Positions 4,493-30,900 of a stretch of 32,000 nt of DNA are shown here, piece by piece (position 1 is the first letter of the stretch; every line of letters starts with the position of its first letter). The position numbers and the translations under genes are program-made. This DNA comes from Microcystis aeruginosa NIES-843. Its GTDB lineage: Bacteria > Cyanobacteriota > Cyanobacteriia > Cyanobacteriales > Microcystaceae. The notes under the pieces were generated by a model that did no database searches, had not been told where the DNA came from, and saw only the letters and a program-made list of their open reading frames with translations. Location: assembly GCF_000010625.1 (NCBI RefSeq), contig NC_010296.1:1770001-1802000 (forward strand). Direction: 5' to 3'.

Positions 4493-5386
4493 TTAGTTGA
4501 CTTTCTCTTTTTTGCCGATATTGTCGTCCGCATTAAAAAACATCGGCAAAAAGCGTTCCATAAACATTTTTGGATCACGATTCCAGGCTTTTTGCGCCGC
4601 TTCTACCCGGAATAATTGTAATTTCGGGTCGAGAAGGGATTGGGGTAAACGTTCCATCAGATATTGAGGACGTTCCCAAAGCGGCATAGTGGCGGCGATT
4701 TCCATTAAATGACCGACGCGGCGCAATTCTGCCCCCAGGGTGATATCCATACCCGATTCATAGGCGGCCTGTTCGATCGCTGAGTATTTGGCCTTCGCTT
4801 TTTCGACTTTTTGCCGATGTTCGGGGCTTTTTTGGGCAATTTTGGCTAACCAACGATTACCCCAACGCACATGACCCGCTTCTTCAGGAAAAATTTTGGC
4901 GATCGTTTCCCGAATTTTCAGATTTTCTGGGGTTTGTTCCCCTTCCTTGAGGGCATAGATATGGGCGGCAAAGTATTCGCATCCCCGTTTTTCCGTGACG
5001 TTAATTGCCGCTAGGGCTGCAATCAGTCCATCTTCCCTTTGTTCTTCGCCTTGGAATTGGTCTTGATCGAGAAGACGTTCAAATTCGTCGATATAGGACA
5101 ACCCCGGCGGTTTCCCCACATCGGCCCCCAATTCGATCAATAAATCGGTTAACCAGTAGGCATGGCGGGCCTCATCGGCGACGTGGTGGGAAAGGTCCTG
5201 GATCAGTTCTTTTGGTTGTCCGTCTAGGGTTTCGATCAGTTCGGTCAGGTCTTTACAGCTACGTTGTTCGTTGTAGCGGTAACGGTTGAGGGTGACAAGA
5301 TGAATTTCGCGATCGCTAATGACACGCTTCATGATGTCGCGAGCGCTCATCGTCTTCTTGAATTTACGAGGGTAAGCAACGGTCAT
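4493..5386 (-). CDS. Ferritin-like / di-iron carboxylate (two ExxH motifs) protein
   Basis: Contains DEARHAYW and EEAGHVRWG (ExxH twice) in a helical context. The ORF-track start 5467 is a TTG; the first ATG is 5386 (MTVAYPRKF...). The start is uncertain. Confidence 0.6.
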   Translation of the reverse strand: MTVAYPRKFKKTMSARDIMKRVISDREIHLVTLNRYRYNEQRSCKDLTELIETLDGQPKELIQDLSHHVADEARHAYWLTDLLIELGADVGKPPGLSYIDEFERLLDQDQFQGEEQREDGLIAALAAINVTEKRGCEYFAAHIYALKEGEQTPENLKIRETIAKIFPEEAGHVRWGNRWLAKIAQKSPEHRQKVEKAKAKYSAIEQAAYESGMDITLGAELRRVGHLMEIAATMPLWERPQYLMERLPQSLLDPKLQLFRVEAAQKAWNRDPKMFMERFLPMFFNADDNIGKKEKVN

Positions 5387-5530
5387 GATTTTGTATCGTT
5401 TTGTTAACGGCTTTCCGTATTCTAACGGAGTTTTTCCCCAATCTGGCAAGGGAGCGGGGAGTGGCAAGCTTTTTTCAGTGATCAGTAAACGGTAATCAGT
5501 AAACTGAAAACTTACATCTGATAACTGATA

Positions 5531-6718
5531 CTAAATCCGGTTATTAAAGAATGATTAAGTAGTCATGCAAAATTAATTACCCAAATAAAAAATTAAGAAG
5601 TATAATACATAAAAAAACGAAGCAGCAGGAAAATACAATGAGATTGATTAGAGACCTAAACCCCGAGAGCCAGAAAATGCTAGAGAGAATTTATCGAGCT
5701 AGTAAACATCATCAAGTAAGAGAGCGAGCGAAATGTATACTCTTAAGTTTTCAGGGAACCACGATAGAAGAATTGAGCGGAATATTTGGAGTTACGAGAA
5801 AGACCATCTATAATTGGTTGACGGACTGGGAAGATAGAAAACTAATTGGTTTTTATAATCGTCGAGGAAGAGGGAGAAAACCTAAATTGACAGAAGCCCA
5901 AGGTCAACAAGTTATTGACTGGGTAAAAGAAGAACCGAAAAGCTTAAAAAAAATCCAGATAAAAATTGTAGAAGAAGGGAAATTAACCGTAAGCAAAGAC
6001 ACGATAAAAAGACTCATAAAAAAAATCAACATGAGGTGGAAAAGGGTGAGAAGAGGGGTCGCCAAAACCCCTGATGAGTGGGAGCTTGAGGTCAAACTAC
6101 CTATTTTAGAAGAACTAAAAAAACAGGAAAAAAGAGGAGAGATTGAGATAGGATATTTGGATGAAATGGGAGGGGATTCAAAGCCTTGTATTCCTGACGC
6201 TTGGCAAGAAGAAAAAACCACGATAAAGTTACCACCAATTGAAGGTAAAAGACTAAATATTTTAGGAATAATGAAACGAGATAATCAATTATTTTATGAG
6301 ACACAGGTCGGAACGGTTACTAGCGAGATAGTTATTAATTTTCTGGATAAATATTGCCAAAATATACAGAAAAAAACTGTCATAATAATTGACCAAGCTT
6401 CCATTCATACCAGCGAGGCATTTATGGAGAAACTTGAGGAATGGGAAAAGAAAAACTTGAAAATATTTTGGTTGCCCACTTATTCACCTCATTTAAATTT
6501 AATTGAAATATTATGGAGATTTTTAAAATATGAATGGATTGAATTTAGCGCCTATAAAGACCGAAAGAGCCTCCTCGCTTACGTTAAAAAAGTGCTGGAC
6601 AATTTTGGAGGCGAGTATGTAATTAATTTTGCCTAGGTACTTATTTATTCCCCCTTTTGCCTATTGCCTTTTGCATGAGTGCCTATCCTCATAAGTAGCC
6701 TATGCTCAACGGATTTAG
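5531..6718 (+). mobile_element. Complete IS630-family insertion sequence (1188 bp) with TA target-site duplication
   Basis: Terminal inverted repeats ctaaatccgg... (5531) and ...cggatttag (6718). TA on both sides (5529-5530, 6719-6720). A single intact transposase ORF lies inside. Confidence 0.88.
5638..6636 (+). CDS. IS630-family DDE transposase
   Basis: 332 aa. N-terminal HTH (TIEELSGIFGVTRKTIYNWL) and a DDE-type core (YLDEMG ... IIIDQASIHTS ... YSPHLNLIEILW). Confidence 0.92.
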   Translation: MRLIRDLNPESQKMLERIYRASKHHQVRERAKCILLSFQGTTIEELSGIFGVTRKTIYNWLTDWEDRKLIGFYNRRGRGRKPKLTEAQGQQVIDWVKEEPKSLKKIQIKIVEEGKLTVSKDTIKRLIKKINMRWKRVRRGVAKTPDEWELEVKLPILEELKKQEKRGEIEIGYLDEMGGDSKPCIPDAWQEEKTTIKLPPIEGKRLNILGIMKRDNQLFYETQVGTVTSEIVINFLDKYCQNIQKKTVIIIDQASIHTSEAFMEKLEEWEKKNLKIFWLPTYSPHLNLIEILWRFLKYEWIEFSAYKDRKSLLAYVKKVLDNFGGEYVINFA

Positions 6719-11155: not shown

Positions 11156-11324
11156 CTTTTCGCCTATCAGCATTCAGCCAGAGTGAGCAATTCTTGCTAT
11201 TCTTATGCTTGTAGGGTTGGAGATTTTTCTAACCTGAAGCGGTAATGCTATCAGCAGCGGATTATTCCCCAAAATTGTCCAGCATATTTTGGTTAACTTT
11301 ATACACAATCATCTAACGAAAACA

Positions 11325-12725
11325 GTGACAGCAAAGAAAACTTGGAGCGATCGCTTTGAAGGTAGTCTCCATCCTACGATCGTGGAATTTAACGCCAGTA
11401 TTGGCTTTGATATCGAATTAATCGAGTATGATCTCACCGGATCAATCGCTCACGCTAAAATGCTCGCCTATACGGGTATTATCAGTCCCGAAGAAGCAGA
11501 TAGTCTCGTCTCTGGATTGGAACAAATTCGTCAAGAATACCGCACCGGCAACTTTAACCCCGGCATCGATCAAGAGGACGTGCATTTTGCCGTAGAACGT
11601 CGTTTAACCGAGATTGTGGGAGATGTGGGCAAAAAACTGCACACGGCCCGTTCGCGCAACGATCAGGTAGGAACGGATATACGTCTGTATCTTAGACAAC
11701 AAATCGATGATATTAGGCAAGAAATTCGCAATTTTCAGCAAGCTTTAGTCAATCACGCCGAAAACCATCTGGAAACCCTGATCCCCGGTTACACCCACCT
11801 ACAGCGCGCTCAACCGATTAGTTTAGCCCATCATCTCCTCGCTTATTTTCAAATGGCCGAACGGGATCACCAAAGATTAGGGCAAATTCGCGCCAGGACT
11901 AATATTTCGCCCCTAGGATGTGGTGCTTTAGCGGGGACGACTTTTCCTATTGATCGTCATTACAGCGCCAATTTACTCGATTTTGAGCAGGTGTATAACA
12001 ATAGTCTCGATGGAGTTAGCGATCGAGATTTTGCCATTGAATTTATGACGGCCGCTAGTCTGATTATGGTCCACCTGAGCCGTTTGAGCGAAGAAATGAT
12101 TCTCTGGGCTTCCCAAGAATTTAGTTTTATCACTCTCACCGATAGTTGTGCCACGGGATCTAGCATTATGCCCCAGAAAAAAAACCCCGATGTTCCCGAA
12201 TTGGTGCGCGGCAAAACAGGGCGGGTTTTTGGGCATTTACAGGCGTTATTGACCTTAATGAAGGGTTTACCCCTAGCCTATAACAAAGACTTGCAGGAGG
12301 ACAAGGAGGCGTTATTTGATGGCGTTAAAACCGTGCGGATTTGTTTGCAAGCGATGACGGTACTTTTAGCCACCGGAATTCAATTTAAAACCGACCGATT
12401 AGCTAATGCGGTGGCGGAAGATTTTTCTAATGCAACGGATGTGGCGGATTATTTAGCCAGTAAGGGGATTCCCTTCCGAGAAGCTTATAATTTAGTCGGG
12501 AAAGTCGTTAAAAGCAGTTTGGCAGCGGGTAAGTTATTGAAAGATTTAACCCTGACCGAATGGCAAGAATTACATCCAGCTTTTGAGGCCGATATCTACG
12601 ACGCGATCGCTCCTCGTCAGGTGGTAGCGGCCCGTAATAGCTATGGTGGCACAGGTTTTGAAGAAGTGCGATCGGCTTTAATTCAAGCTAAAGCCATTCT
12701 CGATCATCGGAAATTTTGGGTCTGA
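11325..12725 (+). CDS. argH: Argininosuccinate lyase
   Basis: Full-length match to the ArgH/fumarate-lyase pattern: KTWSDRFE N-terminus, [19 protein letters not shown] and the signature [12 protein letters not shown]. The start is probably the GTG at 11325 (466 aa); the track start 11289 is TTG. The last ~8 codons lie inside the repeat element at 12702-13061. Confidence 0.95.
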
Positions 12726-13061
12726 AACCCCGCCGTTCTAGGTTGGCTTTACGTTAGAATTAAAAGGCCAGTCTCGAAAACCAAGTGGACGGCGCAGCAC
12801 CTTGAAAACTCGGCTTAGGGGGTTCCGACCAGAAAAGCTTGGCTGGGTAAAAAGTCGCGCGCAACAAGTACAAGAAGCTATAGGCGGTCAACGTACCGTG
12901 GGACACACGGAATCGGGCTTCTGAAATGGGGCGAAAGTCTGTGGACTCTGTGTAAGACAGTACATGGTTTTTTAACTGTGGTATGCGACGGTGGTGGAAG
13001 CAGAAACTTAAATCGTGAGGTTTAGGAATCGCCGCACTTTTAGGGCGGCGAGGATGTCAAG
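12702..13061 (+). mobile_element. tnpB-less IS200/IS605-type mini-element (left end + tnpB relics + omega-RNA/right-end region), copy A
   Basis: Homologous end to end with 17054-17418(-). Shared 5' block: GATyATCG-AAAwTTTGGGT--AAACCCCGyC-TTyTAGG--GGCTTTA. Shared internal TAGGGGGTT / CAGAAAAG. Shared 3' block: AGGAATC-CCG..hairpin..GGCGGyGAGGATGTCAAG. It has no intact ORF, but frames contain tnpB-like relics (..QRTVGHTESG.., ..ESPHF*GGEDVK). Confidence 0.5.
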
Positions 13062-13166
13062 ATTGATATTGTTAGGGGTTGGGGGATAGGTGTTAGGCAA
13101 TAGGCAATAGGCAAAAGTCCTAACTCCAGTAATCCCGTCCCCTTTTTTTATTTTTTAGCTTTATAT

Positions 13167-13622
13167 ATGGGTCGTGTTTGGTATTTTATTAAAAGTGTTA
13201 TGGGAATTATCTTTCGTCATCCTGTAACTGGGGTGACAATGATTCCGCTGCTTGCTGATGGTACAATTGTTTTAATCCGACGCAGAGACACCGGCAAATG
13301 GGCCTTACCGGGGGGAATGATCGATTGGGGGGAAGATATTTTTAATACTGCTCAAAGGGAATTAAAAGAGGAAACAGGATTAAATTTAGTCAGTTTAGGG
13401 CGTTTAGTCGGGGTTTATTCCTCTTTTGAGCGTGATCCGCGCATTCACTCCATTTCATTGTTAATTGAAGTTACAGCTGCGGGTAATTTTCAGATCAAAG
13501 ATACATTAGAAGTTAGTGAGGTGAGAGCTTTTAGCGTCGAAACTTTACCTCTAGGCAATCTCAGTCACGACAATGGTCGCCAACTAGAAGATTATCTCAG
13601 GGGTGCCACTGTAGTGGCTTGA
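13167..13622 (+). CDS. NUDIX hydrolase
   Basis: Nudix box GGMIDWGEDIFNTAQRELKEETGL (Gx5Ex7REUxEExGU) is present. 151 aa. Confidence 0.88.
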   Translation: MGRVWYFIKSVMGIIFRHPVTGVTMIPLLADGTIVLIRRRDTGKWALPGGMIDWGEDIFNTAQRELKEETGLNLVSLGRLVGVYSSFERDPRIHSISLLIEVTAAGNFQIKDTLEVSEVRAFSVETLPLGNLSHDNGRQLEDYLRGATVVA

Positions 13623-13646
13623 TTTTTTCCTAGTATCTGCCACCCT

Positions 13647-13722
13647 AAGTAGCTGGTTATAATTAAATTAAAAATAGATTTTAGGTTCGATCCCCCCCAA
13701 CCCCCCTTAAAAAGGGGGGAGA
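13647..13722 (-). repeat. Partial MITE-like element (tail + one C/G hairpin), inverted relative to the copy at 16475-16690
   Basis: The reverse complement of 13647-13699 matches 16638-16689 with 3 mismatches over ~51 nt (gggggatcgaacctaaaRtcYatttttMatttaattataaccagctactta). It is followed by the hairpin ccccccttaaaaagggggg. Confidence 0.75.
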
Positions 13723-13737
13723 AGAGTTCATAGTAGG

Positions 13738-13799
13738 GTGGGTTAGACGGCAACAATCTAGGCGTTAAAGTCAATCTAACAATCCGTCGTAACCCACCG
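13738..13799. repeat. Long-range hairpin repeat GGTGGGTTAGACGG...CCGTCGTAACCCACC
   Basis: Near-perfect 14-15 bp inverted repeat with a ~33-nt loop. A related GGATGGGTTAGCGG motif (reverse strand) occurs at ~27345-27372. Confidence 0.6.
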
Positions 13800-13881
13800 T
13801 TTTAGTCCACCGAAAGGATGTTTGATTTATGTTTGAAAATAAGATTGATCTGGTTTTACACGCGTTAAAGGAGATGTTGGG

Positions 13882-15054
13882 ATGATCATGATCTATCCAT
13901 CAGAAATCACAAAGAAGTGGCCTCACCGCCCTTTGTCAGAAGTCGTTGATTTCCTCGATAGTAAGAGAAAACCAATTACTCAAAAAGATCGAGTGCCTGG
14001 ACCATATCCATATTATGGAGCTAATGGTCAGCAGGACTCCGTGGCCGATTATATCTTTGATGAGCCTCTTGTACTTTTAGCGGAAGACGGAGGGCATTTT
14101 GGGGATGCTGATAAGACTATTGCTTATCAAGTGGAGGGAAAATGTTGGGTTAACAATCACGCTCATGTTTTGCGACCCAAAAAAGATGTCGATATTAGAT
14201 ACATCTGCCGTCATTTAGAAAGATATGACGTTACCCCGTTTATTACTGGAAGTACACGAGGGAAGCTAACTAAGACTGCGGCTAATAATATTCCTATTGC
14301 TCTCCCACCCCTCGAAGAACAGCGAAGAATTGCGGCAATTTTAGATAAAGCGGATGGGGTGCGACGCAAGCGCAAAGAGGCAATTAGGTTGACTGATGAG
14401 TTGTTAAAATCGACTTTCCTAGAGATGTTCGGTGATCCCGTTACTAATCCGAAAGGGTGGGAGGTTAGAGAACTAGGTGATTGTGTCAAGGATATTGAAT
14501 CGGGTTGGAGTCCTAAATGTGATACGCGACAAGCCGAACCTGAAGAATGGGGTGTTTTGAAATTGGGGGCAGTAACATACGGGCATTTTAATCCTGATGA
14601 AAACAAAGCTATGCTACCAGATGACGTTCCTCGACAGGAATTGGAGATCAAGACAGGTGATTTATTGGTTACTAGAAAGAACACTTATGAATTAGTTGGC
14701 GCTTCTGCTTTTGTACAGATGACTCGCCCCAAATTAATGCTACCAGACTTGATTTTTAGGCTTCGATTAATAGACGGAATAGATCCAGTGTATGTGTGGC
14801 AAACCCTCAGCCAAAAAACAATGCGTCTTAAGTTGAGTGGATTGGCTGGAGGTACAGCAGGTTCTATGCCAAATATTTCAAAAGCGAGACTTCGTACTTT
14901 ACCATTTCCGGTTCCGCCACAACTGCTTCAGTTGAAGTATAGGGAAATTTTCAATCAATTTTGGCTCAAAAAAGAGCATCAGAAAGAGTCGGAAGAAATT
15001 TCCGAAAATCTCTTTAATTCCCTTTTACAAAGGGCATTTAGGGGGGAACTGTAG
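13882..15054 (+). CDS. hsdS: Type I restriction-modification specificity subunit (HsdS), two target-recognition domains, orphan
   Basis: 390 aa with the two conserved HsdS spacer regions (LPPLEEQRRIAAILDKADGVRRKRKEAIRLTDELLKSTFLEMF and LPFPVPPQLLQ...NLFNSLLQRAFRGEL) separating two variable TRDs. No hsdM or hsdR is in the window. Confidence 0.9.
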   Translation: MIMIYPSEITKKWPHRPLSEVVDFLDSKRKPITQKDRVPGPYPYYGANGQQDSVADYIFDEPLVLLAEDGGHFGDADKTIAYQVEGKCWVNNHAHVLRPKKDVDIRYICRHLERYDVTPFITGSTRGKLTKTAANNIPIALPPLEEQRRIAAILDKADGVRRKRKEAIRLTDELLKSTFLEMFGDPVTNPKGWEVRELGDCVKDIESGWSPKCDTRQAEPEEWGVLKLGAVTYGHFNPDENKAMLPDDVPRQELEIKTGDLLVTRKNTYELVGASAFVQMTRPKLMLPDLIFRLRLIDGIDPVYVWQTLSQKTMRLKLSGLAGGTAGSMPNISKARLRTLPFPVPPQLLQLKYREIFNQFWLKKEHQKESEEISENLFNSLLQRAFRGEL

Positions 15055-15332
15055 CCATGACAGCTGGCGGATTACTGCCATAATCTTGTGGGAAATGCCA
15101 TTAAAAAAGACCGTTGGACAATTAACCAAGATTCAGCTACCGCTGCGACGTCCTCAACAACGTCGGTTTTCGGGTAGTCTGCGTATTCGGGAGAACTCTC
15201 TAACCCTTTTTCTCTTTTTTTCCCTTTTTACCCTCATTCTCTATTTTTTCTTTTTTCTTTTATTTCCTGCTCTTAGACGGGTCGATTTTTTTGAGAAAAT
15301 GGCGTTAATGTTAAATTTTATTAAGGCAATGA

Positions 15333-15398
15333 AAGAATTATCGGTTATCAGTTGGGAAGGTGGTGTTATATTATGGGTAGTAAAGTTGCTCAAAAAGC
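15333..15398 (+). repeat. 66-nt direct repeat, copy 1 (partner at 16321-16386)
   Basis: aagaRttatcggttatcagttgggaaggtggtgtKatattatgggtagtaaagttgctcaaaaagc, with 2 mismatches between copies. It ends 12 nt before the ATG at 15410. Confidence 0.9.
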
Positions 15399-15409
15399 CA
15401 GCTACAACC

Positions 15410-15655
15410 ATGAGCGCTCTTGTCAAACCCTCTAGCCTGATTCCCAAAGGATTGCGGGTGCAACAGATTAATAATCTCACCCTATTCAAATTTACAGATG
15501 AACTGGGCGATCGGATGCAGACGCTTCTTGACAAGAAAAAAGCTGATGATCTCACCCCGGAGGAAGTCCTTGAGCTAGAAGCGATTGGCGAACTCGACCA
15601 AATTTTCAGCTACATCAACGCTGTCATTGCCGCCAGAGTAAATGGTCATTCCTAA
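15410..15655 (+). CDS. Small hypothetical protein (81 aa) translationally coupled to the HNH gene
   Basis: ATG at 15410 (MSALVKPSSLIPKGLRVQQINNLTLFKFTDELGDRMQTLLDKKKADDLTPEEVLELEAIGELDQIFSYINAVIAARVNGHS). The longer 15086 ORF runs through a polypyrimidine tract and the repeat, so it is probably an over-extension. Its 3' end overlaps the HNH start by 14 nt. Confidence 0.55.
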   Translation: MSALVKPSSLIPKGLRVQQINNLTLFKFTDELGDRMQTLLDKKKADDLTPEEVLELEAIGELDQIFSYINAVIAARVNGHS

Positions 15656-16103
15656 ATCGCTTTACCATATTGTTCGACAACGCGCTAGGTTCCGGTGTGA
15701 ATACTGTCACTATCCCGAACTCCTCAGTTCCGCCCCTCTTTCGATCGACCATATTCAACCCCAATCCCTCGGTGGTAGCGATACGCTGGACAACCTCGCC
15801 CTAGCCTGTCGTCGTTGCAATGAAAGGCGTTATAACTTCACAACGGGGATTGACCCAGAAACCGAGGCAGAAGCTTCACTGTTCAACCCACGCCAGCAAA
15901 TATGGTCAGAGCATTTTCTGTGGTCGGCGGATGCCTTGAAAATTATCGGCAAAACTCCATCAGGACGCGCCACCTGCCACCGCCTAGATTTGAATGATGA
16001 ACGTCGTGAAGAACCCTTTATCCAGAATGCCCGACGGCAATGGATAGCCGGCCAACTCCATCCACCCAAGGATGACCCACGACAAGAAATTAGTGAGACT
16101 TAA
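15642..16103 (+). CDS. HNH endonuclease (McrA-like small HNH)
   Basis: CEYCHYP...SIDHIQPQSLGGSDTLDNLALACRRCNERR is a complete HNH/zinc-finger motif. 153 aa. Confidence 0.88.
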   Translation: MVIPKSLYHIVRQRARFRCEYCHYPELLSSAPLSIDHIQPQSLGGSDTLDNLALACRRCNERRYNFTTGIDPETEAEASLFNPRQQIWSEHFLWSADALKIIGKTPSGRATCHRLDLNDERREEPFIQNARRQWIAGQLHPPKDDPRQEISET

Positions 16104-16276
16104 GGCGTGGTTTAAAAAAGGTTGATCGGGAGTAACAAAAGCTTAATCCTGATTATTTATTTCCCTTTTTGCCTTTTGCATGATACCATTTTTCTTTATT
16201 TGCGTCACAACGAATGAAGGTTTGGCAAGCATTCGAGCGTGGATGTCTGTCATGGATTTAGAAATTTGGTATGAGT

Positions 16277-16309
16277 AGAAAACGGGTTTCTCGGAGAAAC
16301 CCGTTTTCT
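16277..16309. repeat. Perfect 16-bp inverted repeat (AGAAAACGGGTTTCTC g GAGAAACCCGTTTTCT)
   Basis: Read directly. No U-tract follows on either strand. It sits 12 nt upstream of direct-repeat copy 2. Confidence 0.85.
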
Positions 16310-16320
16310 GTGCGTTACTC

Positions 16321-16386
16321 AAGAGTTATCGGTTATCAGTTGGGAAGGTGGTGTGATATTATGGGTAGTAAAGTTGCTCAAAAAGC
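16321..16386 (+). repeat. 66-nt direct repeat, copy 2 (partner at 15333-15398)
   Basis: Same sequence as copy 1 with 2 mismatches. It contains the same ATG GGT AGT AAA GTT GCT CAA AAA GC mini-ORF start (16361). Confidence 0.9.
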
Positions 16387-16474
16387 TGGTCAGTTTGCTA
16401 TTAGAATAGTAAACGCTGATAAATATCTCAGCCCAGAAAAGAAAGAAGTTATCCTGTTATAATAAAGTTAATTG

Positions 16475-16690
16475 ATAAGTAGGTAGGCGTTAAAAATTAT
16501 CAGATGCCCCCTTATCAAGGGGGATCCCCCCGCCTACCGGCACCCCCCTTATCAAGGGGGATCCCCCCGCCTACCGGCACCCCCCTTATCAAGGGGGATC
16601 CCCCCGCCTACCGGCACCCCCCTTATCAAGGGGGGCAGGGGGGATCGAACCTAAAGTCCATTTTTCATTTAATTATAACCAGCTACTTAT
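16475..16690 (+). mobile_element. MITE-like element with inverted ends (ATAAGTAGGT / AGCTACTTAT) carrying a 36-37-nt tandem hairpin array (16507-16645)
   Basis: Ends are inverted repeats. The interior is ~3.5 tandem units of cccccttatcaagggggatccccccgcctaccggca. The tail matches the inverted partial copy at 13647-13699. The left arm (gttaaaaattRtcagatRccccc) matches 27403-27427. Confidence 0.65.
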
Positions 16691-16706
16691 TTGCTTAATT
16701 TAAGTT

Positions 16707-16943
16707 ATGAACTTCAACCTTGATCTGGAAGATGAATTAAGTCAGCAACTACAGGCTTTATCTCGCTCTACAGGCAAATCCCAGAATGCTTTGATCCGAG
16801 AAGCAATACAGCTTTTAATTACCACAAAGGAACAGTCGCAATGGTCGTCAACTATCCTTAATTTTCAAGGGGTAAGTGATGGTATTGTTTTTGAAGCTTA
16901 TAGAAAGGAACTTTCCCCACCTAGAGAAGATGAGGTGATTTAG
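16707..16943 (+). CDS. Ribbon-helix-helix (CopG/VapB-like) antitoxin
   Basis: 78 aa. The N-terminal RHH pattern (...LSRSTGKSQNALIREAIQLLI) is present. Its stop overlaps the GTG of a PIN-like reading frame (TAGTG). Confidence 0.7.
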   Translation: MNFNLDLEDELSQQLQALSRSTGKSQNALIREAIQLLITTKEQSQWSSTILNFQGVSDGIVFEAYRKELSPPREDEVI

Positions 16944-17086
16944 TGCTGGTTTTGCTCGATACTTGTACGATTAGTGATTTTGTCAAAGGTGATAGCAATA
17001 CTCTAGGGCAGATCAAAAATCACTGTCTGTTAATAGGTGCAACGGCGATTACTCTTGACATCCTCACCGCCGTAAACGGACGGTGA
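16943..17086 (+). pseudogene. Truncated PIN-domain toxin (vapC) N-terminal fragment
   Basis: The GTG at 16943 overlaps the antitoxin stop. The frame reads (M)LVLLDTCTISDFVKGDSNTLGQIKNHCLLIGATAITL, with the typical PIN start and first catalytic Asp. It then runs into the right end of the element at 17054 and stops after 9 foreign codons (47 aa versus ~130 expected). Confidence 0.6.
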
Positions 17087-17418
17087 TTCCTCACCACGCC
17101 ACCTTTTTAGGATGGTCGTTGAATGGGGTTGACGCAGATAGCGAAAAACGCTTAATTGCTTAAGTCTGACTCTTTCGACCCGTCCGTTTTGAGTGTCCGG
17201 ATGCCGGACGGCCACTTTGAACAAGTCGAAAAAATCTAATGTTCAACCTTATTTCCTAGAAAGTTTTACTCGTTCAAGGCCGAATTTGAATTCTTTTCTG
17301 AACAAAACCCCCTACTATCTGTGGTCAAGGTTCAGTTTTTAGCTTGGTTATCGCTTTTTCCATTGTAGCTTAAAGCCGTCCTAAAAGGACGGGGTTTTAA
17401 CCCAAATTTTCGATAATC
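17054..17418 (-). mobile_element. tnpB-less IS200/IS605-type mini-element, copy B (homologue of 12702-13061)
   Basis: Same 5' block, internal blocks and 3' block (..GGCGGTGAGGATGTCAAG, ending at 17054) as copy A. It has a perfect left-end hairpin ccgtcc-tttta-ggacgg and a right-end hairpin caccgTccg-ttta-cggcggtg with one extrahelical T. The relic frame reads ..VAVRHPDTQNGRVE...GEESPSVYGGEDVK. Confidence 0.5.
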
Positions 17419-17426
17419 TTAAATTG

Positions 17427-17634
17427 AATAGGACTTGCTGAAAAAGTAGGGGCGAAGCATTCGGACAGGAAATCTACGGTTTCAGCGATAGGTTATACCC
17501 GAATGCTTCGCCCCCAGAGGACACAATCGCCTTTTAGGAATAATTGGGGGGAAAATTCAGGGACTTTTTCCCTGAAAATTAGGTAAAACCCCACACTCGG
17601 CCCCCACGAAAAACTTTTTGCCGCATACCCTAAA
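17427..17634. mobile_element. MITE, short copy of the family at 28224-28659
   Basis: Left end aataggacttgctgaaaaagt. It has the long hairpin aggggcgaagcattcgg...ccgaatgcttcgcccc, the block ggggggaaaattcagggactttttccctgaaaattaggtaaaacccc, and the right end actttttgccgcataccctaaa. All are collinear with the ends of the 28.2-kb copy. Confidence 0.75.
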
Positions 17635-17650
17635 TACTGGCTTTCTGTCT

Positions 17651-18733
17651 TTAACGGCTGATTCCGCGAAGTTGCTCCAGAAGTTGATCAAGAATGTCTT
17701 CCATCTCTTCCGGGCTTCTGCCCATCCTGACCGGTCCGCGCAGAAACTCTTTAACCGTTATCTTTTTATCGCGGAAGTCACGGACAAAATTATAGATTTT
17801 TTCGGTGGATTGAACTTGTAATTTCATCTCCTCTAGCATTTGCTCAATCGGGTCGATGCCATCCTTCTCACAAGCGCGACTGGCCCTCACCATCTCGCCT
17901 TCCGGGGTATTTCGCACCGAGCGCAGTTCTCTTTTCAGGTTCTCGTATTGCTTTTTGAGTAGTTCGTTATTGGTTTCAACCCTCTCGCACTGTCGTTTGA
18001 GGTCGCTTTCCGATGAGCCTTCAACCGCGAAAGAGTCCCCCATTTGATGCTGTCGTTCGATTTCCAGCAGTCTGGCAATATCTCCCTCTTTATAGGCGCG
18101 GTTGACTTCCTTCATAATCTCGTTGTGACGCATCCGAGTTTCGGGGTCTGTAACCTTGTCGGGGTGAAAAATCTCGGCCATTCTCAGGAAAGTGCGGCGT
18201 ATTTGTCTAGATTCAGGAGATTTAGGCGAGCTTTCAGGTGATAGCTCTGTTCCATCATCGTGACGGCCGTAGGAGTCTCCCCCAGAGAAGAAATCCTGCG
18301 CGGATTGCTCCGATGCTCCTTCTGGTTCTTCGTCTCCGAAAAGTTCGTCTAGTTCTTCATCTCCATCGTCAAATTTTGGGCTAATCACCCCCGTTAACTG
18401 AAGTGTCTCGTAAATTCCGAGAATCCTTTTTTTTGTCTGCTGCCCCAATTTTCTAGCAGTGAGGATTTCGTCAAAAAGGGCGTGTATTTCGCGGTCGAGG
18501 TCGGTAAGTTTTTGATAGAGAGGTTGCCCTCTCTGGAAAATCTCCGTCGCTAAGGAACGCATCTGGTCGAGGAATTTCTTCAGTTCGTTGCGTTTTCTGC
18601 CAATCTGCTTGAGGAGCCACTGGTGCTCCTCCTCTAAAGCTTGGAGACGAAAATGTAGGGAAGACAGAGCCAAGGAAGGAGAGGTAGGCGAATCAGAGGA
18701 GTTCGGTGATTTCGGCTTTTTAGATCTGGTCAT
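17651..18733 (-). CDS. J-domain (DnaJ-like) protein with coiled-coil N-terminus
   Basis: 360 aa. A central J-domain signature includes the HPD tripeptide (FLRMAEIFHPDKVTDPETRMRHNEIMKEVNRAYKEGD). Confidence 0.75.
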   Translation of the reverse strand: MTRSKKPKSPNSSDSPTSPSLALSSLHFRLQALEEEHQWLLKQIGRKRNELKKFLDQMRSLATEIFQRGQPLYQKLTDLDREIHALFDEILTARKLGQQTKKRILGIYETLQLTGVISPKFDDGDEELDELFGDEEPEGASEQSAQDFFSGGDSYGRHDDGTELSPESSPKSPESRQIRRTFLRMAEIFHPDKVTDPETRMRHNEIMKEVNRAYKEGDIARLLEIERQHQMGDSFAVEGSSESDLKRQCERVETNNELLKKQYENLKRELRSVRNTPEGEMVRASRACEKDGIDPIEQMLEEMKLQVQSTEKIYNFVRDFRDKKITVKEFLRGPVRMGRSPEEMEDILDQLLEQLRGISR

Positions 18734-18749: not shown

Positions 18750-21365
18750 ATTAGGGGTCGAGAAGGTCGTCACCGACCTCCCCTCCCATTCAGAACCGTG
18801 CGTGATACTTTCGCATCACACGGCTCCTAGTTTGACTGTTCCCTTGTTAAGGATACAGCTTGACTTCTTTTGGTTGTCCTTGTATTATCTATACTAACTT
18901 CTAATGGTGTTAGCGTAGATGATTTTGGGCTTCCATCAGATGCCGATTTATCATCGTGACAGTGGCGGTGTAGTAATTGAAGGTTCTTGTATTCATCCTT
19001 TCCGCCTAAGCTTAGAGGGTGAATGTGGTCAACTTCAATTAAATCCGATGGGGTGAAATACTGCCCACATCGGCTACACTTGCCTTGTTGCTTTTTGAGT
19101 AGTTTGGCTACTCTTGTCGGTGTGTCGATTGCTTGTCCTCGTCTGGTCGCCCAGTAAGTCCAATTTCCGTCAAATGGTGATGCGTCGGGGCGTACTAGGG
19201 TATGTCTGACGATTGGTGTCCAATTATGTTTCCATAGATAGAGACCGTTTTTGGTTTTGAATAACCAAGATTCGTGTCTTTCTTTCCCATTGCTGAGTTT
19301 AACTGTATCCGGTCTAAAATAATTTCTCAGCTTTTCGTAGTTCGCTTTACCGCATCTTGATACTGTCCATGCCCTTAACATTAACCAGGTTGTATTGTCT
19401 AGTTTATTGAAGGTATCCATAGATACTACTCCTGAGTAGTAGTTAGCCCAACCTCTAATGATTGGGTTTAGTCGACTAATCAGGGCTGATTGAGGTGCTG
19501 TTTTGTGTTTTTTGATTACACCTTTAATCGCTTCTGTGTGGGTTTTAACTGCTTTTTGGCTGGGTTTGATGTGGGTTTTGTGACCAATTAATCGTTTTGC
19601 CCCATCTTTCCCAGATTTGTATTTTCCTACTGGATATTGCCTGATATTGAATCCTAGAAAGTCAAAACCGGGTTCTTCCATTTTCCCATTGTATTCAATA
19701 GGTTTGAGTGTGTGACACACTCTGGTTTTTTCTGGTTTAAGTTCTAATCCAATAGGCTTTAACCATTCAGAAATGGCAGTTTTGCACTGTTCAATGATTT
19801 CGAGTGATGGTGAAATCACCACAAAATCATCGGCGTACCTTATTAAAACAGCTTGATTTTTACCATTTCCCTTTTTGGGAAATAGTGTTTCAATTAATCT
19901 TGCCATTCCATCCAGTGCGATGTTGGCTAGTAGTGGACTTATTACCCCTCCTTGTGGTGTCCCTGTTTCTGTTTCTTCAAATACACCGTTATCCAAAACT
20001 CCTGCTTTGAGCCATTGTTTTATGTCTCTTTTCAGGGAACTTGGACAATGAATTTTGGACAGTAAAAAGTCGTGATTAATTCGGTCAAAACACTTGGCAA
20101 TATCAGCATCTAATACAAAGTAGCTACTTTGATTAATGGTGATGTATATCCTTGATATAGCGTCATGGTCAGACCTTCCGGGTCGGAAACCATAGCTGGT
20201 TCCTTCCATTTTTGACTCCCATTCTGGTTCAAGTGCCGATTTAATCAACGCTTGTCTAGCTCTGTCTTTGATGGTTGGTATTCCTAATGGGCGTTTTTCA
20301 TCCCTGCCGGGTTTAGGAATCCATACCCTTCTTAGCGGTTTTGCTTTAAGTGTTCCTTTGATTTCTTCGGTTAGATTTAGCCTTTGTTCTGGGGATATTG
20401 CTATCATTCCATCGACTCCTGCTGTTTTCTTTCCTTGATTATCTTGGGTTACTTTGCGAACTGCTAATAAACGAGCATAGTATGATTTCACCAATAGACG
20501 TTGCAACCTTCTAACCTTTGCATCCTGTCCCGATTTAGCCGCTTGGTATATCCTCTTTTGGAGCTTGAAAACATATCTTTGGACTTTTGCCCAATTGATA
20601 GTTTTCCATACATTCGTAGTCTTAGTGGTTTTCGGTTTCCCGAATCCTTTACCTTCTCTCGATTTCGTCATATAGACTCCTACTAGACTCTATCCTTACA
20701 ATCAAACCGTAACCCGTCAGCATATCCTGATTATTACTGTCAGGCGTTGGCTTTTGGTTACATCTCACACCCTTGAAGGCTTGCGCTTACACTTATCGCT
20801 ACTGGGTATTTCGACCGATACTCAGAGCCTAAAAGGGTTTATAACGTTCCGTTTATATGGGCATTCCATCTTTAGATTTGTCCTCTCCACCGGGGTACTT
20901 TAAAGGTCTGTGTGAGTGGGAAAGGTAAGACCCTCACTATTCCCCTTATTCTTTTGAATGTAGTGTGTCAACCTATTTCACTACTCAATGTTTACGATGG
21001 TTCAAGTCGGACATTTGGCTCACGCCTAATCTTGGATGGTTGGCAGTGGTCTCGGTTTGGATGTTAGGTTACATCTAGGAGCCTTCCGTTCCCCGCTTCA
21101 GTCCCAGAGTTGTGACTTCTGAATCTGGGGGTGGCTATCGCCGTTACTCTCAGCTTTGTAACGATTTGTGATTGATTGTTACAAAGTGTATTGACCTTGA
21201 GTCCCCTTGCCTGATTTGGTATCGGGTGATACTAAACGTTGGGACATATAAACAGTTATAAGGTTGGTCTGGGTTGACCTCTTAGATTCAGTCGGGGGAC
21301 TGAAGACCTTACTAGGCGGTTATTTCGGGCATTTCAGCCCTATTTCATGCCTAAACGTTTCGCAC
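18750..21365 (-). mobile_element. Group II intron (ribozyme + intron-encoded protein), ~2.6 kb
   Basis: On the minus strand the 5' end is GTGCGAAACG (21365). A canonical domain V, GAGCCGTGTGATGC-GAAA-GTATCACGCACGGTTC (18826-18793), has the AGC triad and a 2-nt bulge and starts right after the IEP stop. A domain VI-like stem with a bulged A follows, and the intron ends ..CCCCTAAT at about 18750. The 5' boundary is ambiguous; a second GTGCGA lies at 21443. Confidence 0.85.
18827..20671 (-). CDS. Group II intron reverse transcriptase/maturase with C-terminal DNA-binding and HNH endonuclease domains
   Basis: 614 aa. RT motifs are present (RRVWIPKPGRDEKRPLGIPTIKDR, FDRINH, GTPQGGVISPLLANIALD, LIRYADDFVV). 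A maturase X region (LNPIIRGWANYY) and an En domain (CSRCGQYF...VDHIHPLSLGGKDEYKNLQLLHRHCH) are also present. Confidence 0.96.
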   Translation of the reverse strand: MTKSREGKGFGKPKTTKTTNVWKTINWAKVQRYVFKLQKRIYQAAKSGQDAKVRRLQRLLVKSYYARLLAVRKVTQDNQGKKTAGVDGMIAISPEQRLNLTEEIKGTLKAKPLRRVWIPKPGRDEKRPLGIPTIKDRARQALIKSALEPEWESKMEGTSYGFRPGRSDHDAISRIYITINQSSYFVLDADIAKCFDRINHDFLLSKIHCPSSLKRDIKQWLKAGVLDNGVFEETETGTPQGGVISPLLANIALDGMARLIETLFPKKGNGKNQAVLIRYADDFVVISPSLEIIEQCKTAISEWLKPIGLELKPEKTRVCHTLKPIEYNGKMEEPGFDFLGFNIRQYPVGKYKSGKDGAKRLIGHKTHIKPSQKAVKTHTEAIKGVIKKHKTAPQSALISRLNPIIRGWANYYSGVVSMDTFNKLDNTTWLMLRAWTVSRCGKANYEKLRNYFRPDTVKLSNGKERHESWLFKTKNGLYLWKHNWTPIVRHTLVRPDASPFDGNWTYWATRRGQAIDTPTRVAKLLKKQQGKCSRCGQYFTPSDLIEVDHIHPLSLGGKDEYKNLQLLHRHCHDDKSASDGSPKSSTLTPLEVSIDNTRTTKRSQAVSLTREQSN

Positions 21366-21445
21366 CATATTGTCTATTCTACCAAGCCGGAAGGAGCCGC
21401 ATTCCTAAAACTCACCCTTGGCTCATTTTGTTGTTTCTCGCACCT

Positions 21446-21583
21446 CCCCAATTCCCCAATTCCCCAATTCCCCAATTCCCCAATTCCCCACTTCCCCAGC
21501 TCCCCACTTCCCCACTTCCCCACTTCCCCATCTCCCCACTTCCCCACTTCCCCACTTCCATCACCCCATCACCCCATCACCCC
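21446..21583. repeat. Phased octamer array: 17 CCCC runs at exact 8-nt period (CCCCAATT x5, CCCCACTT-type x9, CCCCATCA x3)
   Basis: Counted directly: C4 runs start at 21446, 21454, ... 21550, then 21564, 21572, 21580. The complement is (G4N4)n on the minus strand. Confidence 0.97.
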
Positions 21584-21865
21584 TGCGCCGGCGCTCCTGC
21601 GGAAACCTTTTTAAGTGGCTAGAAGCTAGATATATCAATGGTCTTAATTAATTCTTATCAATCGAATTAAATTTTTGTAAATAAAATTCTCGCTCGGATT
21701 AATTATTTTTTCCAAATTCCGCTAGACTTATTTAGTAAGTTCAATCGAGATTCAATATTCCATAGCTAAATTTCTATAGCACGGGCTAGAAGGAAAGTTT
21801 AGCGAGGGATTCCTTTACCCATAATTCAGCACACATACTTGCTTTAGCAGCAGGCAGGAGATTCT

Positions 21866-27239: not shown

Positions 27240-27422
27240 CTAGGGAAGCCTTCTTCAAGTAAAATTATTTCTAAGTAAGTAAGTGGGTGGGTGGAATTAA
27301 ATATAAGATGAACGTAGGTTGGGTTGAAGCATGAAACCCAACGACCGCATAGTTTACGCTACCGCTAACCCATCCTACAAATAATTGTGCCTCCCTACTT
27401 AGATGTTAAAAATTGTCAGATA

Positions 27423-27637
27423 CCCCCCTTATCAAGGGGGGATCAAGGGGGGATCAGCACCCCTTATCAAGGGGGGATCAAGGGGGGATCAGCACCCCTT
27501 ATCAAGGGGGGATCAAGGGGGGATCAGCACCCCTTATCAAGGGGGGATTAAGGGGGGATCAGCACCCCCCTTATTAAGGGGGGATTAAGGGGGGATCAGC
27601 ACCCCCCTTATAAAGGGGGGATTAAGGGGGGATCAGC
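27423..27637. repeat. Six tandem 35-37-nt units (CCCCTTATCAAGGGGGGATCAAGGGGGGATCAGCA)
   Basis: Units were counted directly, with 3' units drifting (atc>att, caa>taa). Each unit has a CCCCTT-ATC-AAGGGG hairpin and two G6 runs. There are no unique spacers. Confidence 0.93.
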
Positions 27638-28223: not shown

Positions 28224-28659
28224 AATAGGGTTTGCGGCAAAAAGTAGGGGCGAAGCATTCGGATAGGAAATCTAGGGTTTCAGCGATAGGTTATGCCCGA
28301 ATGCTTCGCCCCTACAGGACGCGGGCCGATGAAGATGTAAGGTTTTGAAACATGATTCTCTCAAAATCTTGCACCTGTTTCGCTCGTAAAGCCCCAAAAC
28401 CCTTACTTTGCCTACATTTCACATTTATTCAGCCAGCCCTAGGGCTTGCTGAATAAATCTAAAAACATTGTTCGATAATACTTTGAGACCTTTTTGAAAT
28501 CCAAAAGTACCAGCCATTGGAGTGAGCGGGGGGAAAATTCCTGGACTTTTTCCCTGAAAATTAGGTAATTGACCACCTGAAAATGGGTAAAACCCTACAC
28601 CCTACACCCCACACCCCACACCCTGCCCCCAGGAAAAACTTTTTGCCGCAAACCCTATT
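28224..28659. mobile_element. 436-bp MITE with 22-bp terminal inverted repeats and TA target duplication
   Basis: The ends aatagggtttgcggcaaaaagt (28224) and actttttgccgcaaaccctatt (28659) are perfect reverse complements. TA flanks both sides (28222-28223, 28660-28661). Internal features are the hairpin aggggcgaagcattcgg...ccgaatgcttcgcccct and an internal TIR-like tagggcttgctgaataaa at ~28440. Confidence 0.85.
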
Positions 28660-29180
28660 TACTGGACTCTGGAAATATTACCCGCTTTAATCCAACCTTC
28701 GCGACCATCGGACAGACGTATGCGCTGCCATTGGCCATCGCTGCTGGTTCCCACCACACTGACTTTAGTATTATAATCCAGACCGCCGAGACGAGTCGAT
28801 TCACTGGTAGGTTGAGAGCGCAGACTTAAACCGCTTTGCCATGTCACCCGCGCTTGATAACCCTCGGATGTGGCTTCTCTTTTTCTTGCTTCGGGACTGG
28901 GTTTCGGGGAAGCTTTTGGTGCTGGTGCAGCTGTGGGAGACTCTTTCACCTCAGCTTGGGGTTGTTCTTGGACGGGAGTAGTAGGGATGGGAGAAGGTTT
29001 GACGGCGGTTTTTTCCTCCTTAGTTTCCTCTTTTTTCTCCTCGGTAAAGACGGGTTTAGGAGGATTAGAATTCATACCGGAGAGAAGCATATAGGCGACA
29101 GCAGTAGCCCCACCGACCAAAATCGCCACTCCCATGACAAAACCGAGCATAAATTGCAATAAACCAGATAAACGCTTCAT
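28659..29180 (-). CDS. Membrane-anchored protein with Pro/Glu/Lys-rich linker and C-terminal bacterial SH3 domain
   Basis: N-terminal TM helix (LLQFMLGFVMGVAILVGGATAVAYMLL), a low-complexity linker, and an SH3_3-like C-terminus (YQARVTWQSGLSLRSQPT...GQWQRIRLSDGREGWIKAGNI). It starts 12 nt after the ycf46-like stop. Confidence 0.75.
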   Translation of the reverse strand: MKRLSGLLQFMLGFVMGVAILVGGATAVAYMLLSGMNSNPPKPVFTEEKKEETKEEKTAVKPSPIPTTPVQEQPQAEVKESPTAAPAPKASPKPSPEARKREATSEGYQARVTWQSGLSLRSQPTSESTRLGGLDYNTKVSVVGTSSDGQWQRIRLSDGREGWIKAGNISRVQ

Positions 29181-30721: not shown

Positions 30722-30900
30722 TATTTAGGGCTTGCTGAATAAATCTAAAAACCTTGCTGGATAAGACTTTTAGACTTTTTGTCAATCCAAAAGTACCGGA
30801 CCTGGGAGTGAGCGGGGGGAAAATTCAGGTACTTTTTCCCTGAAAATGGGTAAAACCCCACACCCTGCCCCCACGAAAAACTTTTTCAGCAAACCCTATT
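30722..30900. mobile_element. ~180-bp MITE, short member of the 28224-28659 family
   Basis: Collinear with 28438-28659 (tagggcttgctgaataaatctaaaaac...gagcggggggaaaattc...ccctgaaaatgggtaaaacccc...actttttcagcaaaccctatt). Followed by TA (30901-30902). It ends 24 nt upstream of the ycf46-like ATG. Confidence 0.75.

Follow-up and report, generated by a model that had tools for sequence, protein, structure and literature searches.

A probable gene-less IS200/IS605-type element carrying a TnpB guide-RNA scaffold at the end of argH in Microcystis aeruginosa NIES-843

The end of argH in M. aeruginosa NIES-843 lies in an ORF-free block of about 360 nt that recurs nearby on the opposite strand, which raises the question of what this block is and what it carries. 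The locus was analysed within a 32,000-nt stretch of contig NC_010296.1 (positions 1,770,001 to 1,802,000; the window), and all coordinates below are those of the window. A preliminary description, made by reading the sequence, took the block for an IS200/IS605-type mini element that has lost tnpB, retains the omega-RNA region and encodes the C-terminus of ArgH. The repeated, ORF-free block was confirmed at both places and on opposite strands, and this interpretation was supported, with errors in detail only. We consider it highly probable that the block in argH (copy A) belongs to the PATEs (palindrome-associated transposable elements), that is, that it is a gene-less derivative of an IS608-like IS200/IS605 element of the type that has tnpB as its sole gene when complete, and that the second block (copy B) is its sister.

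Insertion site, limits and spread of the element

Three insert-free contigs (L001-L003), in which argH adjoins the same NUDIX gene, gave the junction ...CTCGATCAT|GATTGATATTG. When the empty site (...GATCAT|GATTGAT...) was compared with the filled site (...GATCAT, 353 nt, GATTGAT...), copy A was found directly 3' of TCAT and without a target-site duplication. These contigs, thus, define copy A as the 353 nt at 12708..13060 (+ strand) and not as 12702-13061; the block first described is real, but its limits were off by 6 nt on the left and 1 nt on the right. To their left, both copies share GATYAT; this is the target motif and belongs to the flanking DNA, as does the G at 13061. The TCAT itself (12704..12707, +), the target or transposon-adjacent motif (TAM) of copy A, is flanking DNA within argH and outside the element. 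Empty and filled alleles of this site both occur in wild Microcystis populations.

The insertion falls in the last codons of argH (argininosuccinate lyase; 11289..12725, +; Pfam Lyase_1 and ASL_C2). ArgH ends in ...LDHD at the empty site and in ...LDHRKFWV in the window, so that copy A supplies five codons and a stop (RKFWV and stop in translation; 12708-12725, +, within its left end) in place of one codon and a stop. Since the RKFWV tail is missing from genomes without the insert, the proposal that the ArgH C-terminus is element-encoded holds: this terminus is transposon-derived and polymorphic, a point of relevance to genome annotation.

With its ca. 350 nt, many copies and no ORF, the element resembles a classical MITE, which a DDE transposase mobilises and which is recognised by its terminal inverted repeats and by duplication of the target site; Microcystis is rich in MITEs (PMC2779907). 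However, the junction sequences refute this explanation, to which we assign next to no probability. There is no duplication at the junction, and the ends of copy A are not inverted repeats of each other, the left end (CGGAAATTTT...) being unrelated to the right end (...GGATGTCAA). In addition, the element is always inserted 3' of TYAT with the same orientation and has ends in common with TnpB elements. The absence of both target-site duplication and terminal inverted repeats is the behaviour of IS200/IS605 elements, and catalogues of Microcystis MITEs that are based on terminal inverted repeats would overlook this family.

The insertion pattern was then followed across Microcystis metagenomes, in which 54 complete elements were found at 45 sites. 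The left flank was TCAT or TTAT at 44 of these 45 sites, the exception being L187, and the orientation was always the same; IS200/IS605 elements typically insert in this way, behind (3' of) a particular tetra- or pentanucleotide and in a single orientation. Copies of 352/353 nt always lay 3' of TCAT, and those of the 358-360-nt type lay 3' of TTAT, again with the exception of L187. Intact copies showed at least 24 (A-type) and at least 12 (B-type) distinct right flanks in the metagenomes, and one identical 353-nt sequence appeared in 13 metagenome matches. Intact copies thus occupy at least 36 different sites, which indicates that the family is, or recently was, mobile, and bears out the earlier view of a propagating family. 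Variants with internal deletions (193-321 nt) all came from one assembly set (28 of 28, VY accessions) and were absent from the JGI and other contigs (0 of 29), and some carried runs of N at the junction. These variants were treated as assembly artefacts, and recurrent loss of the omega-RNA region at fixed sites was rejected as they are confined to the VY assemblies. Scans of viral contigs gave 0 and 4 matches.

A host structured RNA that is not mobile, for example an argH 3' UTR with a regulatory role, a ribozyme of known type or the HEARO (IscB omega) RNA, would also be structured, ORF-free and conserved across cyanobacteria, as the block is. The block is, however, missing from the same locus in related strains and present at dozens of unrelated sites, and this polymorphism and multiplicity of sites refute the possibility of a host RNA, whose chance of being correct is minimal. 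Neither copy matched an Rfam family at gathering scores, and the only such match in the window was a group II intron domain at 18750-18828. HEARO, the IS605-orfB motifs and group I/II introns likewise fell below their Rfam gathering thresholds in both copies. In a permissive Rfam search of 12500-17700, only HgcC (RF00062) touched either copy, at 12960-13073 across the 3' end of copy A; with 14 bits (E = 8) against a gathering score of 50, it was dismissed as a chance match. A tRNA/tmRNA scan found none.

Ends of the two copies and pairing with the target motif

Copy B (17055..17412, - strand) is 358 nt long and represents a second subfamily of the mini elements, as indicated by a covariance-model match and a subfamily alignment; it is inserted after a TTAT (17413-17416, -). 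Both copies finish with ...GGCGGyGAGGATGTCAA preceded by a hairpin. The right end of copy A (13026..13060, +) has an IS608-like layout, as judged from its single-stranded DNA (ssDNA) fold, motif conservation and the geometry of IS608. It comprises GAAT (13026-13029, +), the hairpin TCGCCGC-ACTTTTAGG-GCGGCGA (13029-13051, +) and, after this terminal hairpin, GGATGTCAA, in which the TCAA cleavage motif (13057-13060, +) follows GGATG. The ssDNA fold of the right-end hairpin gave z = -4.4 in copy A and -2.4 in copy B, and 9-10 nt separate it from the end of TCAA. In IS608 of Helicobacter pylori, the right end is also GAAT, a hairpin and about 10 nt ending in TCAA, with TCAA lying 10 nt 3' of the hairpin (PMC3201880).

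The left end of copy A (12708..12751, +) is 84% identical to that of L131, a full-length element described below. It carries an imperfect subterminal hairpin, CCGCCG-TTCTA-GGTTGG (12730-12746, +), which is degenerate (ssDNA fold z = +0.37), whereas that of copy B (CCGTCC/GGACGG) is intact (z = -1.8). The claim of subterminal hairpins at both ends, therefore, stands for both right ends and for the left end of copy B but is weakened for the left end of copy A. The degenerate variant was found at 31 different left flanks, and the hairpin variants among copies show compensatory changes in the stem. Imperfect palindromes are thus subterminal at both ends and the cleavage sites lie at a distance from them, as in IS200/IS605 elements; the left-end hairpin is ca. 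20 nt from the cleavage point, as in IS608.

A tetranucleotide 5' of the left hairpin covaries with the target motif. In copy A this is GAAA (12724-12727, +), a candidate DNA guide recognised from that covariation. Elements at TCAT carry G-AAACC (55-60 distinct left flanks) and those at TTAT carry A-AAACC (41), with one exception; TTAC elements carry AAAG, and a putative TGAC element carries CAAG. These combinations (TCAT/GAAA, TTAT/AAAA, TTAC/AAAG and TGAC/CAAG) suggest that the TAM may be matched to the left-end guide by base pairing. The pairing of a target motif with a guide 5' of the left hairpin, a feature of IS200/IS605 elements, is visible here as sequence covariation. The covarying positions are TAM position 2 with guide position 1 and TAM position 4 with guide position 4, and the register of the pairing is approximate. 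This agreement between target motif and left-end guide recalls IS608, as does the AAAG 5' of the left hairpin in the related TTAC-flanked elements. Unlike IS608, which inserts at TTAC, the mini elements target TCAT or TTAT and contain neither tnpA nor tnpB, and their covarying positions are more distant from the hairpin, by 2 nt, than the guide of IS608.

Full-length relatives and the omega-RNA scaffold

The right-end pattern GGAATCNCC..GGNGAGGATGTCAA was present at no fewer than 120 loci in genomes of many phyla, mostly a short distance 3' of a TnpB gene; among the matches listed, an ORF of 250-570 aa ended within 200 nt in about 45. The existence of full-length tnpB relatives with the same ends, which had been anticipated, was borne out by L131 of Microcystis and L085 of Nostoc. 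L131 (L131:7194-8513; 1320 nt; from a Microcystis metagenome) follows a TCAT TAM and encodes a TnpB of 395 aa. L085 (1319 nt) contains an ORF with the Pfam domains OrfB_IS605, Cas12f1-like_TNB and HTH_OrfB_IS605, and the same three domains were found in the ORF of L119. Both L131 and L085 belong with the TnpB-only elements of the IS605 family (IS1341 group) and have the ends, TAM and scaffold of copy A, but copy A lacks ca. 950 nt of tnpB. The identity between L131 and copy A is 84% at the left end and 89% at the right end, and copy A could not be aligned with it over nt 56-289; L131 is, therefore, a cousin rather than the immediate parent, and no immediate full-length parent was found among the elements compared. 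ISMae10, an IS605-family element of 1330 bp with 49 copies in M. aeruginosa NIES-843 (PMC2779907), can be equated with L131 by length and family only. Neither tnpB nor tnpA was found within the window. A 360-aa ORF adjoining copy B (17651-18733) was rejected as TnpB, showing only a weak DnaJ match, and a Y1-type ORF in L001 is not evidently the cognate TnpA, being a REP-associated-type transposase by its sequence as read by eye.

A covariance model (R1) was built from full-length and mini elements, its structure being derived here from these relatives. R1 matched copy A at 12912-13060 along its entire length of 146 positions, with a score of 93.4 bits (E about 1e-21). The structure comprises 26 base pairs; across 96 sequences, 93.2% of cells were paired compared with 44-49% when the partners were slid, and 459 cells with double changes were counted, 21 pairs having such changes, a level reached by none of 500 shuffles. 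The alignment used for this covariation had been fitted to the model, which somewhat favours the structure. Together with the RNA fold (z = -2.83), these results identify an omega-RNA scaffold at 12896..13060 (+), homologous to tnpB's 3' end together with the right end, and agree with the proposal that copy A retains the omega-RNA region; homology to these parts and a covarying secondary structure are two of the properties expected of such an RNA. The scaffold begins with H1, a hairpin with a GGACA loop (12896-12910, +) found separately from R1, followed by the long-range helix H2 (UCUGU/GCAGA), H3, H4 and the terminal hairpin H5, and the last 64 nt of copy A are 89% identical to L131. In copy B, R1 matched 17055-17217 with 40.7 bits; alignment with the second TnpB subfamily showed that its scaffold is of the L120/L036/L119 type, with GGACG/GCGTC as H2.

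In TnpB systems such as ISDra2 (Karvelis et al. 2021, PMC8612924), the omega RNA (reRNA) extends from the tnpB 3' end through the right end, has a conserved structure ending at the element boundary and takes its guide from the 3' flank. The scaffolds here share these features but, unlike ISDra2, the mini elements have no TnpB in cis. Because the empty sites place the end of copy A at 13060, its predicted guide begins at 13061, one nucleotide before the start first proposed (13062). This guide would be GATTGATATTGTTAGG (13061..13076, +), flanking DNA that directly follows TCAT in the empty alleles, its length being taken from other TnpB systems. The predicted guide of copy B is GAGTAATCGCCGTTGC (17039..17054, -), the flanking DNA directly 3' of its right end.

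The scaffold of copy A scores 93 bits as compared to 120-151 bits for other mini and full-length elements (143 for L085, 137 for L131), contains an insertion of 25 nt that separates H1 from H2, and its H3 is imperfect; it may, thus, bind TnpB poorly. Such a low score and insertion are what one would expect if copy A were an inert relic, a PATE mobilised by TnpA whose scaffold persists through recent descent, is unexpressed or unbound by TnpB, and brings no benefit. The Microcystis copies are also nearly identical, so that conservation among them is uninformative about selection, and no sigma-70 consensus promoter was found in or adjoining either copy. On the other hand, copy A has the same orientation as argH, which makes a promoter of its own unnecessary. 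Moreover, the mini elements of six other cyanobacterial genera (365-403 nt, one common architecture) keep scaffolds that score 120-151 bits, on a par with full-length elements, in a region that no longer codes for protein. We, therefore, regard an inert copy A as rather unlikely, and favour the reading that its omega RNA may be used by TnpB supplied in trans.

Between the left end and the scaffold lies a middle segment (12752..12895, +), which shares the blocks ACCTTGA, TAGGGGGTT, CAGAAAAG and GTAAAA with that of copy B. This segment of ca. 140 nt had no match in any full-length element compared. It was rejected as a structured RNA (RNA fold z = +1.04) and as a sigma-70 promoter, there being no consensus site; it opens with TAGAAT (12755-12760), and this TAGAAT/TACAAT is -10-like by eye only. 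Relics of both ends of TnpB had also been proposed. The 5' relic, LELKGQSRKPSGRRSTL, was not substantiated: tblastn with 46 N-termini gave noise only, and a profile of the TnpB N-terminus did not score real elements above 400 shuffles, so a local match of FRKEFKFGLE to RKAFKFRL is not claimed. At the 3' side, RTVGHTE is consistent with the C-terminal tail of TnpB (..GLRTVGHTGT in L041 and ..LSTVGHTETN in L163), but copy A itself gave no significant match; significant C-terminal matches were obtained in related mini elements, in which the last ca. 40 codons are detectable. The other 3' candidate, ESPHF*GGEDVK, is merely the right-end hairpin.

Possible use of TnpB in trans and comparison with known PATEs

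On the basis of these features, the following route is proposed. A Y1 TnpA encoded at another genomic locus would excise and insert copy A as single-stranded DNA, finding its target by pairing of the TAM with the short left-end guide. As many as 14-16 active IS200/605 tnpA copies are reported from M. aeruginosa PCC 7806 (PMC11448079). Copy A may be transcribed by read-through from argH or from a left-end promoter, and TnpB from a full-length relative may bind the RNA. The 3' extension GATTGATATTGTTAGG... would then direct the cutting of the empty allele (TCAT|GATTGATATTG...), and this would favour restoration of the element by recombination (homing). The change of the ArgH end is a side effect of the insertion.

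PATEs are gene-less IS200/IS605 derivatives first described in Haloquadratum; they often encode omega RNAs that would require TnpB in trans (Meers et al. 2023, PMC10055086), and PATE-like elements are known from Geobacillus stearothermophilus and Clostridioides difficile (PMC10055086; Zedaveinyte et al., bioRxiv 10.1101/2023.11.20.567912). Gene-less omega-RNA elements have, thus, already been described and their use in trans is not a new idea (PMC10055086). The present family agrees with PATEs in having no ORF, family ends with subterminal hairpins, no target duplication and a TnpA presumably acting in trans. It differs in the middle segment, which is missing from its full-length relatives, and in its two subfamilies, which have a common left half, scaffolds of two TnpB lineages and TCAT or TTAT sites. 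A literature search found no description of this cyanobacterial family (353/358 nt in Microcystis, 365-403 nt in six genera). The locus provides a natural gene-less element with a TnpB guide-RNA scaffold, exact limits and empty and filled argH alleles, and a cognate-looking TnpB element occurs in the same Microcystis populations; the use of trans TnpB by a PATE is, therefore, directly testable, and in a bloom-forming cyanobacterium. Two natural TAM/guide pairs, at TCAT and TTAT, are supplied as well.

In the Microcystis mini elements, one left end with its leader of ca. 140 nt recurs with omega-RNA/right-end cassettes that belong to either of two TnpB subfamilies, the A-type resembling L131/L085 and the B-type L120/L036, with a switch of target and guide (TCAT/G vs. 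TTAT/A). We tentatively raise the possibility, for which we hold only modest expectation, that these elements form a self-propagating family of solo guide RNAs that exploits two TnpB lineages and homes by means of TnpB in trans. If so, guide-scaffold modules would be exchanged between gene-less and TnpB-bearing elements, and each copy would home into its own empty allele using TnpB supplied in trans.

Ends of the two copies and the terminus of argH

An ORF-free block of ca. 360 nt was common to positions 12702-13061 and 17054-17418 of the window, on opposite strands, as the preliminary description had reported. Alignment of the copy at the 3' end of argH (copy A) with its sister (copy B) showed conserved islands with diverged stretches between them, and both 3' termini consisted of a hairpin followed by GAGGATGTCAA. 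A look-up in public assemblies of the NUDIX protein whose gene lies downstream of argH gave three contigs with the same argH-NUDIX order and a shorter spacer. The empty alleles read ...ATTCTCGATCAT joined directly to GATTGATATTGTT..., while the window reads ...GATCAT, 353 nt and then GATTGATATTGTT.... Based on these junctions, the insert is exactly 12708-13060 (+). The extent first proposed for copy A, 12702-13061, was therefore slightly too wide: the GATYAT found left of each copy belongs to the target, and 13061 (G) to the flanking DNA. No target-site duplication was found between the empty and filled junctions of copy A, and the insert 12708-13060 has no terminal inverted repeats. Copy B occupies 17055-17412 (358 nt, minus strand) after TTAT.

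Before the stop codon, ArgH ends in ...LDHD in the empty alleles and in ...LDHRKFWV in the window, confirming that the terminal RKFWV and the stop are element-encoded. Three other contigs have the same argH insertion, its T-run shorter by one base, and their ArgH ends in ...LDHRKFASETPPF. Since the tail is beyond the Pfam ASL_C2 domain, its alteration probably does not affect the enzyme. The final 116 nt of copy A recur with 100% identity at another insertion site in a Microcystis contig. Rfam gave no credible match to either copy, the sole overlap in a permissive search being HgcC (14 bits, E = 8), and no tRNA or tmRNA was found.

Relatives, TnpB and the omega-RNA scaffold

The right-end pattern GGAATCNCC-N8-18-GGNGAGGATGTCAA, scanned in one genome per species, was found at at least 120 loci in cyanobacteria, proteobacteria, actinobacteria, chlamydiae and other phyla. 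Among the matches listed, an ORF of 250-570 aa ended within 200 nt of the motif at ca. 45 loci; two such ORFs were tested, and both were TnpB by Pfam (OrfB_IS605, Cas12f1-like_TNB, HTH_OrfB_IS605). The left end was also common to several cyanobacterial loci. Full-length elements with this left end were 1319-1346 nt long (L085 of Nostoc, L053, L025, L119 and L057), and gene-less minis of 365-403 nt occurred in Scytonema, Microcoleus, Calothrix, Microseira, Baaleninema and an Oscillatoriales genome. The tnpB-bearing relative with the same ends that had been anticipated was found in the Microcystis metagenome contig L131 (7194-8513), where a 1320-nt element after TCAT encodes a 395-aa TnpB with 68% identity to that of L085; its identity to copy A was 84% at the left end and 89% at the right end.

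The last ca. 40 TnpB codons were still recognisable in related minis by tblastn. Relics of both ends of TnpB had been suggested for copy A. The RTVGHTE stretch near its 3' end is similar to the corresponding position of TnpB tails, though no search gave a significant match for copy A itself; the relic near the 5' end was not supported.

When the regions next to the right end were aligned for 15 elements, full-length and mini, the consensus had five helices, namely a hairpin with a GGACA-type loop (H1), a long-range helix UCUGU/ACAGA (H2), two further helices (H3 and H4), and a terminal hairpin that is also the TnpA right-end hairpin (H5). The covariance model R1 built from this alignment (146 positions, 26 pairs) had exactly two significant matches in the window, at 12912-13060 in copy A (93.4 bits, full model) and at 17055-17217 in copy B (40.7 bits). 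Minis of other genera reached 120-151 bits, on a par with the scores of full-length elements. Among 96 R1 matches in the retrieved loci, pairing holds in 93.2% of cells as compared to 44-49% when the partners were slid by 1-3 columns, changes on both sides were seen in 459 cells, and no shuffle reached the observed values; the fitting of this 96-sequence alignment to R1 biases it towards the structure, but the margin is large. A 25-nt insertion separates H1 (12896-12910) from H2 in copy A, whose H3 is imperfect. Copy B, with GGACG/GCGUC as H2, represents a second subfamily and aligns well with L120-, L036- and L119-type elements.

Right-end motifs matching the scaffold model with no TnpB-sized ORF nearby were also observed outside the cyanobacteria, e.g. 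in Methylobacter and Glycomyces (L006, L012, L027, L070, L076, L106 and others). It appears that this TnpB clade has widespread gene-less derivatives.

The middle segment of copy A (12752-12895) had no counterpart among the full-length elements compared, and had neither a TnpB coding signal nor an unusual fold. Since A- and B-type minis have this segment and the left end in common but their scaffolds come from two distinct TnpB lineages, their sequences suggest module exchange or an unsampled parent.

Mobility, target choice and proposed mechanism

A pattern drawn from the middle segment common to A and B matched at least 120 loci in metagenomes. The matches listed include 54 complete elements at 45 distinct sites, none with tnpB inside, and one identical 353-nt sequence recurs in 13 of the matches listed. 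Also among these, all copies of 352/353 nt follow TCAT and those of 358-360 nt follow TTAT, except L187. Intact copies alone gave at least 24 (A-type) and at least 12 (B-type) different right flanks. Recurrent internal deletion was considered for shortened copies of 193-321 nt and rejected: all 28 were in one set of assemblies (VY-prefixed accessions, loci L128-L247) against 0/29 in JGI and other contigs, and N runs were present at some junctions. They probably reflect misassembly of a high-copy repeat.

The right end has the order GAAT, hairpin and 9-10 nt finishing in TCAA, and the left hairpin is ca. 20 nt from the junction; this layout of the Microcystis minis matches that of IS608 (PMC3201880). 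The target/transposon-adjacent motif (TAM) covaries with two left-end bases, with one exception. Among the matches listed, GAAA-CC accompanies TCAT (55-60 distinct left flanks) and AAAA-CC accompanies TTAT (41). TTAC-flanked relatives have AAAG, as does IS608, and a putative TGAC element (n = 1) has CAAG. At the sequence level, this covariation is what DNA-guided target choice by Y1 TnpA predicts. Left-hairpin stems differ among copies, with compensatory changes, and the commonest A-type hairpin, that of the window included, has a weakened stem, yet occurs with 31 different left flanks among the matches listed. In some metagenome copies the loop is inverted (e.g. L130 and L149 vs L137 and L209), as in CCGCCG-TAGAA-CGGCGG vs CCGCCG-TTCTA-CGGCGG and likewise TAAAA vs TTTTA, a pattern expected of template switching within a palindrome.

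The results demonstrate that copy A is a discrete gene-less IS608-like element, recently mobile, with a scaffold whose counterpart in full-length relatives overlaps the 3' end of tnpB. Judging from its family, TnpA in trans would have moved it as single-stranded DNA (PMC3201880; PMC8612924; PMC10055086). The element would be transcribed, the simplest route for copy A being an argH transcript that includes it at its 3' end, and TnpB from an L131-type element may bind the scaffold. The 3' flank from 13061 on would then act as a guide against the empty allele, TCAT followed by GATTGATATTG..., which is present in natural populations. Microcystis is reported to have active IS200/605 tnpA copies (PMC11448079) and a 1330-bp element of the IS605 family in 49 copies (PMC2779907).

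The copy A family belongs to the PATEs (palindrome-associated transposable elements), and PATEs 'often encode omega RNAs' for which TnpB would be needed in trans (Meers et al. 2023, PMC10055086). The overall interpretation in the preliminary description was thus supported, but this kind of element is already known. The cyanobacterial family itself, the two TAM/guide states and the natural empty/filled allele pair are new.

Other features of the window and nearby loci

The copy B locus (16688-17417) has an orthologue in the metagenome locus L194 (96% over 733 nt, same right flank). Since the two sequences are unrelated left of TTAT, a rearrangement or further insertion abuts the left end of copy B in one strain. 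MITE-like short repeats lie directly left of copy B (17441-17522 and 17537-17640) and again near 28-31 kb (28239-28320, matching the former, and 28519-28665 and 30804-30907, matching the latter); one of them forms a long hairpin, GGGGCGAAGCATTCGG...CCGAATGCTTCGCCCC.

A group II intron occupies 18750-20671 (-), with an ORF at 18827-20671 (-) having reverse-transcriptase, maturase and HNH domains (RVT_N, RVT_1, GIIM, HNH) and an Rfam Intron_gpII domain V/VI at 18750-18828 (-; 59 bits). The DDE_3/HTH transposase at 5638-6636 (+), with inverted repeats at 5549-5580 and 6619-6650, looks like an IS630-type insertion sequence bounded by its terminal inverted repeats. A 73-nt inverted repeat (13646-13718 and 16617-16689, 86% complementary) encloses a 2.9-kb segment with genes for HsdS (type I restriction specificity; 13882-15054) and a free-standing HNH endonuclease (15642-16103) and an ORF matching no Pfam family (15086-15655); the segment is possibly a cassette that moves or inverts. 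At 16507-16634 and 27390-27636, palindromic units of 35-37 nt (CCCCCTTATCAAGGGGG...) are arrayed in tandem without spacers, and simple 7- and 8-nt tandem repeats lie at 322-475 and 21417-21584. In L001, with its empty argH-NUDIX locus, a Y1/HUH transposase-like ORF (5329-5707; ...IMPNHFHGIV...) two genes downstream of that locus is flanked by GGGCGCACGCGATGCGCCC palindromes and looks like a REP-associated (RAYT-type) transposase.
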